64,000 nucleotides of DNA from an uncultured Gammaproteobacteria bacterium. Its GTDB lineage: Bacteria; Patescibacteriota; Patescibacteriia; UBA9934. Below, piece after piece: positions 51,417 through 53,242 of this stretch; position 1 is the first letter of the stretch; each line of letters starts with the position of its first letter. Under the pieces are notes generated by a model. The model worked only from the letters and a program-made list of their open reading frames with translations. It was not told the origin of the DNA and made no database searches. Where the stretch lies: the NCBI GenBank assembly GCA_964401485.1, contig CAYNYL010000005.1, forward strand, positions 8,158 to 72,157. Direction: 5' to 3'. The position numbers and the translations under genes were made by a program.

Positions 51417-51433
51417 ACCGAGTCAACGAAAAA

Positions 51434-51461
51434 GCCCCGACCGTTAGGCCGAGGCTTTTAT
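51434..51461. terminator. Bidirectional terminator (GCCCCGACC-gtta-GGCCGAGGC with flanking A/T runs)
   Basis: 9-bp stem including G-U pairs. It serves both the VanW gene (+) and the 16S rRNA gene (-). Confidence 0.6.
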
Positions 51462-51587
51462 GTTCATTATCCAGAAAGAATTGACTCCTATGTGATTGCA
51501 ACGTCTTGCCTCTCACGCTTTAGCGTAGAGGACTTTGCTCACTCAAAGTGAGATCGACCATCTTTCCGAAGAAAGATTCATCCTTTA

Positions 51588-53078
51588 AAAAGGAGGTGAT
51601 CCATCCACAGCTTCCGCTACGGATGCCTTGTTACGACTTCGTCCCTATTGCTGGTTTCGCCTTCTGCCGTTCTACAACGACATTCGGGCGCCACCAACTC
51701 TCTTGACGTGACGGGCGGTGAGTACAAGACCTGAGAACGTATTCAAGGCGGCGTTATGATCCGCCTTTACTAGCGATTCCAACTTCACGGAGTCGAGTTG
51801 CAGACTCCGATCCGAACTGAGACCGGTTTTTAGGGATTTGCTCCGCTTCGCAGCTTGGCAGCCCGTTGTACCGGCCATTGTAACATGCGTGTCGCCCTGG
51901 ACGTAAGGGCCACGCTGATTTGACGTCATCCCTTCCTTCCTCCTTCTTGCGAAGGCAGTCTCGTGTGAAAATACAACACACGACAGGGGTTGCGCTCGTT
52001 ATCCCACTTAAGGGTACACCTCACGGCACGAGCTGACGACAACCGTGCAGCACCTGTCTAGCACCCTCGAAGGAGCCCTACTTTCATAGGGTTTGCAGCT
52101 AGTAGTCGAGCCCAGGTGAGGTTTCTCGCGTACCATCGAATTAAACCGCATGTTCCACCGCTTGTGCAGGTCCCCGTCTATTCCTTTGAGTTTTAGCCTT
52201 GCGGCCGTACTTCCCAGGCGGAGTGCTTAACGCGTTAGCTTGTTTCAACGGCTCCGGGAGGGTCGATACTCCCGAAACCTAGCACTCATCGTTTACAGCG
52301 TGGACTACTGGGGTATCTAATCCCATTCGCTACCCATGCTTTCGTACATCAGCGTCAGTAATGTTCCAGTCGGCTGTTTTCACATTTGGTGTTCTACCTA
52401 ATATTAACGGATTTTACCCCTACACTAGGCATTCCGCCGACCTCTCCCATACTCTAGTCTTGCAGTATCACCCGCAGTCTCCAGGTTGAGCCTGAAGGTT
52501 TAACAAATGACTTACAAGACAGCCTGCGTACGCTTTACGCCCAATAAATCCGGTCAACGCTCGGGGTCTCTGTATTACCGCTGCTGCTGGCACAGAGTTA
52601 GCAACCCCTTTCTGCTGAGGTACCGTCATCGTTCGTCCCTCAGAACAGCCGTTTACGACCCGAAGGCCTTCATCCGGCACGCGGCATTGCTCCATCACAC
52701 TTTCGTGCATTGTGGAAGATTCGCGACTGCAGCCACCCGTAGGTGTCTGGGCAGTGTCTCAGTCCCAGTGAGCCGGGTCACGCTCTCACGCCCGGTATCC
52801 GTCATAGCCTTGGTGAGCCATTACCTCACCAACTAGCTGATAGAACATAGGCCCTTCTTGTACCGATAAATCTTTCAATGGGAATGTCTTGCGACCCCCC
52901 ATCCATATCGTGTATTAGCTATCGTTTCCAATAGTTGTTCACGAGTACAAGGTAAGTTACCAATGTGTTACTCTCCCGTTTGCCACTTTTATCATCGATG
53001 CAAGCACCAATAATTTTCGTTCGACTTGCATGCCTTAGCCATGCCGCCAGCGTTCGACCTGAGCCAGGATCAAACTCT
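51588..53078 (-). rRNA. rrs: 16S ribosomal RNA (about 1491 nt, complete, no linked 23S/5S)
   Basis: The 5' end is AGAGTTTGATCCTGGCTCAG (reverse complement at 53059-53078). The 3' end is GGATCACCTCCTTT (reverse complement at 51588-51601). Conserved internal blocks are present, including GTGCCAGCAGCAGCGGTAATAC and the 1390s region. Confidence 0.9.
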
Positions 53079-53193
53079 CATATATAGTTTATAACCCGAA
53101 GGTTATAGCTCTGCTTAAATAGACGTTGCAATCACACAGTTGTCAATTCTTTCTGTAGAGCCAATTTGGCTCGTTTTTAATGACCACGGGGGC

Positions 53194-53222
53194 ATTTTAA
53201 TTGAACGGCGGAAAGCTGTCAA
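53194..53222 (-). promoter_or_regulatory. Putative rRNA promoter P1, TTGACA-N17-TAAAAT (minus strand), about 110 nt upstream of the mature 16S 5' end; a weaker TTGACA/TTGCAA promoter-like element lies downstream (P2)
   Basis: Read directly in the sequence (tgtcaa at 53217-53222 and atttta at 53194-53199 on the plus strand). Confidence 0.5.
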
Positions 53223-53242
53223 GGGCTTCGGGGCCCTGTTTC

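Follow-up and report, generated by a model that had tools for sequence, protein, structure and literature searches.

A 16S rRNA gene with altered primer sites and no linked 23S or 5S gene in a Patescibacteria contig placed near Candidatus Uhrbacteria

Introduction

In the rrnH operon of Escherichia coli, the 16S ribosomal RNA (rRNA) gene is followed by tRNA-Ile, tRNA-Ala, 23S and 5S. The rRNA genes of a genome are called unlinked when more than 1500 bp lie between 16S and 23S, and Patescibacteria form a cluster with exclusively unlinked rRNA genes (Brewer et al., 10.1101/705046; ISME J 2020). Here, we analyzed the 16S gene on a 64,000-nucleotide stretch of contig CAYNYL010000005.1 (assembly GCA_964401485.1). 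This whole stretch is called the window, and positions are counted from its first letter. The gene is in all likelihood the functional, probably single-copy 16S of a Patescibacteria organism (candidate phyla radiation, CPR) related to Candidatus Uhrbacteria, and it would form a self-contained transcription unit apart from 23S and 5S.

Mismatches to widely used primers are a second documented trait of Patescibacteria. The 515F/806R pair perfectly matches 19.6% of Patescibacteria and 0.5% of the class ABY1, the latter being covered to 75.6% by V3-V4 primers; the modified primer 515F_Mod is degenerate at positions 8, 11, 12, 13 and 18, with N at position 12 (Hu et al. 2024, Microbiome 12:55, PMC10943839). 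We compared the window 16S with both bodies of work, with E. coli rrnH and with related loci.

Results

The 16S gene is complete and stands alone in 64 kb

The 16S (small-subunit, SSU) rRNA gene lies at 51589..53085 on the minus strand, so that its downstream side has the lower coordinates. It is complete and 1497 nt long. The match to Rfam family RF00177 (bacterial SSU rRNA) covers model positions 1-1533/1533 without truncation and scores 1442.7 bits (E=0; gathering score 50), and an nhmmer search with the E. coli 16S gene as query found it at E=4e-210. Aligned with E. coli rrsH, the gene is 74.1% identical, its largest insertion measures 8 nt, and its deletions (4-16 nt) fall in helix tips only. 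The anti-Shine-Dalgarno sequence at the 3' end is intact (...GGATCACCTCCTTT; ...GATCACCTCCTTT). An earlier interpretation of this DNA from its letters alone (the sequence-only reading) had called the gene complete and free of large insertions, and both statements stand; the length of about 1491 nt that it gave has to be replaced by 1497 nt.

Many CPR 16S genes are said to evade primers and to carry long rRNA insertions, reportedly described by Brown and colleagues in 2015. Insertions or introns of hundreds of nucleotides are absent from the window 16S, with its maximum of 8 nt. Among the related loci introduced below, the 16S matches span 2.3-2.7 kb in L048, L050, L060, L082 and L083, which fits the reported large CPR insertions.

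No large-subunit (LSU) or 5S rRNA gene was found in the 64 kb with Rfam at the gathering threshold, and the E. coli 23S and 5S queries had no nhmmer match in the same 64 kb even at E<=10. The sequence free of 23S extends 51.5 kb downstream of 16S, the side on which a directly linked 23S would sit, and 11 kb upstream. Ten tRNA genes were detected in the window by the Rfam scan, and the Rfam/tRNA scan showed no spacer tRNA in the stretch from the 16S 3' end to the terminator. The 16S gene is therefore unlinked as defined by Brewer et al. (16S and 23S more than 1500 bp apart, or no 23S on the stretch), and a canonical rrn operon is absent: 16S is followed by a terminator and a convergent VanW-domain gene. 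These searches agree with the sequence-only reading, which had described a 16S gene with no linked 23S, 5S or tRNA spacer.

Two groups of tRNA genes lie on the downstream side. tRNA-Ile(GAU), a usual rrn-spacer tRNA, and tRNA-Phe are found at 47947-48307 (+); they lie on the strand opposite to 16S, about 3.6 kb past its 3' end. A tight cluster of tRNA-Pro(TGG), Ala(CGC), Ala(GGC) and Pro(CGG) occupies 50239-50588 (+), just upstream of the VanW gene. tRNA-Ala(UGC) is absent from the window.

Relatives share the unlinked layout

The comparison set was made by scanning GTDB species representatives for GTGCCAGCAGCAGCGGTAATAC, the variant with A at position 526 of 16S (A526; E. coli numbering here and below). 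It comprises at least 120 loci, labelled L###, in which 16S was located with the window sequence and 23S and 5S with E. coli queries; all counts below refer to the loci listed. Their titles are overwhelmingly those of Patescibacteria lineages, among them Uhr-, Magasanik-, Falkow-, Buchanan-, Taylor-, Nomura-, Doudna-, Kerfeld- and Woesebacteria and Saccharibacteria.

A 23S gene within 1 kb downstream of 16S was seen in one of the 57 testable loci listed, all of which include the 16S 3' end and at least 1 kb beyond it on the downstream side, and that one is a Chlamydiae genome. Within 1.5 kb downstream, no 23S was found in 48 loci listed, and Rfam detected no LSU or 5S gene in 18 loci selected among the closest relatives listed. 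In a relative whose RpoC is 76% identical to that of the window, 16S lies a few kb past rpoC on the opposite strand, and the next 18 kb downstream contain no 23S. The window agrees with the unlinked 16S genes surveyed by Brewer et al. in the absence of 23S within 1500 bp, in lineage and in its small, symbiont-like genome context, and we found no substantive difference. The promoter, leader/trailer stem and terminator described below are outside the scope of that survey.

The placement of the window rests on best matches. Its RpoC has one match at 100% identity, present in NCBI and Logan with a longest contig of 75,949 bp, and then none above 78%; the named matches, at 68-78% identity, are assigned to Candidatus Uhrbacteria or the Patescibacteria group. 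In the NCBI lineage, Uhrbacteria fall within the Parcubacteria group, itself part of the Patescibacteria group. Among the loci listed, the closest 16S belongs to an Uhrbacteria UBA12070 metagenome-assembled genome (MAG), at 89.1% identity (closer relatives than the loci listed may exist, which bears on this figure), and the next ones are at 85.7% and 84.6%. The usual 16S identity thresholds for taxonomic ranks are reportedly those of Yarza and colleagues (2014), and by such thresholds 89.1% corresponds roughly to a new genus in a known family or order. The window also carries 16S signatures of the ABY1 type, namely the 515F mismatch and the pair U505-A526. Judged by these matches, the window genome belongs to the Patescibacteria (CPR), near Candidatus Uhrbacteria (SILVA/GTDB class ABY1). 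The sequence-only reading had alluded to candidate-phyla lineages, and the best RpoC and 16S matches point the same way: they lead to Patescibacteria/Uhrbacteria with deviating primer sites, not to a well-sampled phylum with normal ones.

The 16S gene is predicted to have its own promoter, processing stem and terminator

A predicted sigma-70-type promoter lies at 53194..53222 (minus; -35 TTGACA at 53222-53217, N17, -10 TAAAAT at 53199-53194). It agrees with the consensus at 11 of 12 positions, as expected from the strong promoter of its own that the sequence-only reading had assigned to the gene, and it begins 20 nt past the trmD stop codon. Transcription would start near 53187 and give a leader of about 100 nt ahead of the mature 5' end. 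No convincing match to a boxA antitermination motif was seen by eye in this leader.

The leader and the trailer are complementary. The leader arm (53121..53155, minus; CAGAAAGAATTGAC..CTGTGTGATTGCAACGTCT) and the trailer arm (51472..51506, minus; AGACGTTGCAATCACATAG..GTCAATTCTTTCTG) pair as 14 + 19 bp (33 bp), and the duplex has an energy of -70.8 kcal/mol versus -41.8 +/- 4.7 for shuffled leaders (z = -6.1). Such a stem would be a classical substrate for RNase III-type excision of the pre-16S RNA. Thus, 16S could mature outside any 16S-23S-5S precursor.

A putative intrinsic terminator at ~51429..51459 (minus; AAAAGCCTCGGCC-TAAC-GGTCGGGGCTTTTT, 13 bp followed by a U-run) was also matched by a terminator scan, and transcription would stop there, some 130-160 nt beyond the mature 3' terminus. 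The downstream side of 16S is closed by the convergent VanW-domain gene (50622..51416, plus; PF04294, E=1e-37). The sequence-only reading had proposed a bidirectional terminator shared by the two genes. The palindrome is indeed common to both, but it serves the 16S strand markedly better: the hairpin reaches -23.0 kcal/mol in the 16S sense versus -17.4 in the VanW sense, where the G·U pairs of the 16S strand turn into C·A mismatches.

Compared with E. coli rrnH, the window unit lacks the spacer tRNAs, 23S and 5S. With rrnH it shares a sigma-70 promoter, a leader and a leader/spacer-type stem that brackets 16S for RNase III-type processing; unlike that of rrnH, its transcript is predicted to end soon after 16S, at the terminator. 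Similar signals occur in relatives. Sites with at least 10/12 consensus positions were found within 300 nt upstream of 16S in 56 of the 99 related loci listed (background, 0.084 per 300 nt), and the leader/trailer duplex had a z below -3 in 27 of 54 testable loci listed, including the two closest among them.

The order rpsP-khpA-trmD-16S is conserved

As the sequence-only reading had stated, 16S lies directly downstream of trmD (tRNA m1G37 methyltransferase; 53243..54010, minus; PF01746, E=1e-59), which adjoins it on the same strand. Further upstream lie khpA (KH-domain protein; 54973-55323, minus; PF13083) and rpsP (ribosomal protein S16; 55407-55991, minus; PF00886), giving the order rpsP, khpA, two unannotated plus-strand open reading frames (ORFs), trmD and 16S.

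This neighborhood is widespread among relatives. In 28 of the 73 loci listed with enough upstream sequence, trmD was found no more than 3 kb upstream of 16S; it has the orientation of 16S in 25 of the 28 and is usually preceded by khpA and rpsP. Sorted by 16S identity to the window, trmD is this close in 13/17 loci listed at >=78%, in 12/26 at 75-78% and in 3/26 below 75%. The trmD-16S synteny spans Uhr-, Magasanik-, Buchanan- and Parcubacteria-labelled genomes. The full order rpsP-khpA-trmD-16S is seen in L009, L014, L023, L025, L026, L029, L059, L071, L073, L094, L100, L116 and others. In the three closest listed relatives that include the region (L122, L085 and L035), khpA-trmD is inverted yet still adjoins 16S. 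Genomes of this kind hold about 700-1000 genes, and we estimate the probability of a chance trmD-16S adjacency at well under 1%. Thus, the adjacency is an inherited synteny retained across deep divergence. We found no description of the rpsP-khpA-trmD-16S synteny in the literature searched, and this order is the one mildly new item of the present analysis.

In a rival reading, 16S would be the distal member of a mixed protein/rRNA operon, ancestrally rpsP-khpA-trmD, transcribed mostly by read-through from trmD, with the promoter-like site being secondary. Only 20 nt separate the trmD stop codon from the -35 box, no terminator was found between trmD and the 16S promoter, and the recurrence of trmD upstream of 16S, most of all at >=78% identity, fits such an operon. 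Still, we consider a mainly read-through origin of 16S unlikely. The promoter is close to consensus, and sites of this quality are strongly enriched upstream of 16S in the relatives listed; the inverted khpA-trmD in L122, L085 and L035 means that co-transcription cannot be required; and the processing stem would cut 16S free from any upstream mRNA. A strong internal promoter together with the inverted cases argues that read-through is dispensable. Some read-through from trmD may nevertheless add to 16S transcription because no terminator separates the two genes.

The VanW/16S junction is reproduced in an independent assembly

The unlinked state would be unreal if the assembly or the binning had joined 16S to foreign flanks or collapsed an rrn operon. 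Indeed, short-read metagenome assemblies are classically prone to breaks and mis-joins at rRNA genes, and many related contigs end within 16S. We regard such an artefact as very improbable here, given that the 33-bp complementarity of leader and trailer shows that both flanks belong to one gene. Moreover, an independently assembled Logan contig from another run (SRR13355620) is 100% identical to window positions 50532-51618, which comprise VanW, the terminator, the trailer and 30 nt of the 16S 3' end, confirming the VanW/16S junction. Dozens of genomes assembled independently also have trmD next to 16S, and the relative with 76% RpoC identity likewise has its 16S on the opposite strand past rpoC and free of a downstream 23S.

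Primer-site changes are mostly halves of compensated base-pair swaps

Most of the primer-site changes that we checked are one half of a base-pair swap: the partner has changed too, and the pairs remain Watson-Crick. Pairing assignments follow the established secondary structure of E. coli 16S. In the 338-357 site (52727..52746, minus; ACACCTACGGGTGGCTGCAG), the helix 14 pair U340-A349 has become A-U. The same site carries U353, and T is the majority state at this position among the related loci listed. The 530-loop region with the 515F site (52575..52603, minus; GTGCCAGCAGCAGCGGTAA) has A526, and its pseudoknot partner at 52603 is U505, so that G505-C526 has become U-A. A921 in the 907R/926R site (52174..52193, minus) pairs with U1396 at window position 51721, which belongs to the 1391R site (51710..51726, minus); here U921-A1396 of helix 28 has become A-U. 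In helix 45, which covers the 1492R and 1525R sites (51602..51639, minus), A1508-U1527 has become U-A and G1515-C1520 has become C-G, and the pair 1506-1529 is likewise compensated, as C-G.

The same pairs covary in relatives. U505 accompanies A526 in 111 of the 119 related loci listed, positions 340/349 are complementary (U/A, A/U or G/C) in 106/106 listed loci with a recognised site, and positions 921/1396 are A-U in 39 of the loci listed, U-A in 22 and unpaired in 1. The paired swaps and their covariation show that the rRNA is functional and its states structural and lineage-typical, with neither errors nor decay behind them. The swaps in helices 14, 28 and 45 and in the 530 pseudoknot keep the structure intact, with the primer mismatches as a side effect. 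That the gene is an additional copy in decay or without function, or that its primer-site differences are sequencing errors, is scarcely credible: universally conserved positions such as 526, 921 and 1396 do differ from E. coli, but their changes are matched by the pairing partners, the same paired states occur in many genomes, the full-length covariance-model score is within the range of relatives' complete 16S genes, and the anti-Shine-Dalgarno sequence is intact alongside the gene's own predicted promoter, processing stem and terminator. The window 16S is a functional rRNA.

We counted primer and probe mismatches in silico against the window 16S. Perfect matches were obtained for 27F, for the widely used degenerate 341F (CCTACGGGNGGCWGCAG), for the probe EUB338-II, for 785R, 806R and 806RB, and for 515F_Mod together with 806R_Mod. 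515F and 515F-Y each have 1 mismatch, which is internal, at primer position 12 (E. coli C526A). 519R, 907R, 926R, 1100R, 1391R and 1525R each have 1 mismatch as well, whereas the non-degenerate 341F of Muyzer and 1492R have 2, and the EUB338-I probe has 3.

The window sequence at 338-355 (ACACCTACGGGTGGCTGC) is identical to the target of EUB338-II. This target is reportedly the Planctomycetes-type 338 region, as described by Daims and colleagues in 1999. The window organism, judged by its best matches, is one of the Patescibacteria and not a planctomycete, and the state common to both is a recurrent swap of the helix-14 pair.

The window shows the same pattern as the ABY1 coverage of Hu et al. 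(2024): a mismatch at position 12 of 515F, with the V3-V4 primers matching. The sequence-only reading had quoted the 341F and 515F sites, and both quotations are exact in the window. Its deviation at 341F is real, but only relative to the non-degenerate 341F and to EUB338-I, since the degenerate 341F matches. Its deviation at 515F holds as a single mismatch, and the mismatches to 907R/926R, 1391R, 1492R and 1525R come in addition to those it had listed. The under-detection that it had linked to such sites is borne out in kind by the coverage of 19.6% for Patescibacteria and 0.5% for ABY1 (Hu et al. 2024, PMC10943839).

Flanking genes and layouts among relatives

The true start of trmD is probably near 53908-53920, and a promoter-like site at 53944..53916 lies just ahead of it. 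On the minus strand, the rpsP-khpA-trmD block is interrupted by two ORFs of the plus strand, 53710-54498 and 54471-54944, neither of which has a Pfam match. The long trmD ORF is overlapped in its 5' part by the former, and the latter looks membrane-like.

Downstream, the neighborhood of 16S varies among relatives: it holds tRNA arrays in some, an acidic protein ahead of tuf and rpsJ in others, and other genes in the rest. A VanW gene adjoining 16S was found in none of the 16S-anchored related loci listed; thus, the terminator shared with VanW is specific to the window genome. We also considered whether 16S had been inserted into a trmD-rplS junction and rejected this, as the ORFs downstream of 16S in 13 relatives give no support. 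Three relatives were examined at rpoC-anchored loci. L006 has 16S in the equivalent place, and L007 has VanW at the edge of the locus. On the 768-kb contig L005, 16S is absent from the 10 kb on either side of rpoC, so the proximity of rpoC and 16S is not general.

Several listed loci show other arrangements of the rRNA genes. In two of them, 16S has a 23S on its own strand 2.0-2.5 kb downstream: L042 (16S 3951-5438, 23S 5-1437 (-)) and L064 (16S 3179-4688, 23S 23-1157 (-); the complete Nealsonbacteria genome CP179888.1). These pairs are unlinked by the 1500-bp rule and may still be co-transcribed. In L031 (3084-7944, +) and L098 (3-4651, -), both Patescibacteria, 23S lies ~310-340 nt upstream of 16S, a reversal of the canonical 16S-23S-5S order; L031 has 5S between 23S and 16S. 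A third locus has a 23S fragment ~5.6 kb upstream of 16S.

An array of 3-6 tRNA genes follows 16S directly on the same strand, with no 23S, in L126 (4279-4629, +) and L116 (1810-2536, -), and such an array is also seen in L067 (1289-2517, -) and L110 (4957-5526, -). These loci look like 16S-tRNA units; the window has no such array. In the Magasanikbacteria-like loci L010, L030, L041 and L111, a small acidic protein, tuf (EF-Tu) and rpsJ (S10) come next after 16S, in this order and on its strand, so that 16S sits between two translation-related gene clusters.

A526 also occurs in a few loci with non-Patescibacteria titles (L034, L039, L045, L058, L076 and L120), which name Dehalococcoidia, Limisphaerales, Polyangiaceae, Mariniblastus and Chlamydiae; the variant may have arisen there independently or stem from mis-binning. 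A Patescibacteria-type 16S together with the rpsP-khpA-trmD synteny is found in many MAGs titled "uncultured Gammaproteobacteria" (binchicken) and in one titled "Pirellulales" (L116); the MAGs concerned are L011, L014, L020, L026, L035, L044, L047, L053, L059, L068, L071, L116 and others. The "Gammaproteobacteria" and "Pirellulales" titles look like placeholder labels or mis-binned contigs.

Discussion

Taken together, these results make it highly likely that the window carries the functional 16S gene of a CPR organism related to Uhrbacteria, probably present as a single copy and transcribed, 23S and 5S apart, as a unit of its own. Some points weigh against this view. The search for 23S and 5S covered the 64 kb of the window, and about 12 kb of the 75,949-bp source contig lie outside it. 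The placement comes from best matches. The promoter, terminator and processing stem are predictions from the sequence, and their use, the RNase III processing and the single copy are inferred. Finally, the comparison set was chosen by the A526 variant, so that its counts cover that subset and are lower bounds, and closer relatives were possibly missed.

A stand-alone 16S gene and altered primer sites are both normal for this lineage and documented for Patescibacteria. As unlinked rRNA genes (10.1101/705046) and primer mismatches (PMC10943839) have been published, the window 16S is ordinary for its lineage. It matters little alone, and its use is to illustrate, cleanly and with full annotation, two traits documented for Patescibacteria.

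For surveys, the primer sites mean that 515F/806R, 907R, 1391R and 1492R would fail on the window organism or amplify it poorly; its recovery would be expected with degenerate 341F/785R, with 27F and with 515F_Mod/806R_Mod. Documented mismatches of this kind lead to under-counting of Patescibacteria in V4 amplicon surveys and in fluorescence in situ hybridization with EUB338-I. The base-pair swaps add a caution, namely that the primer sites are structurally constrained and should not be thought of as "degenerate".

The position of 16S after rpsP-khpA-trmD allows a more tentative suggestion. The order may be anciently conserved and possibly selected in a deep Patescibacteria clade, and 16S might be coupled to the operon for S16, KhpA and TrmD by read-through; we hold this to be possible and rather doubtful. 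The synteny could be a small lead to how rRNA synthesis is coordinated once the three rRNAs are no longer co-transcribed.

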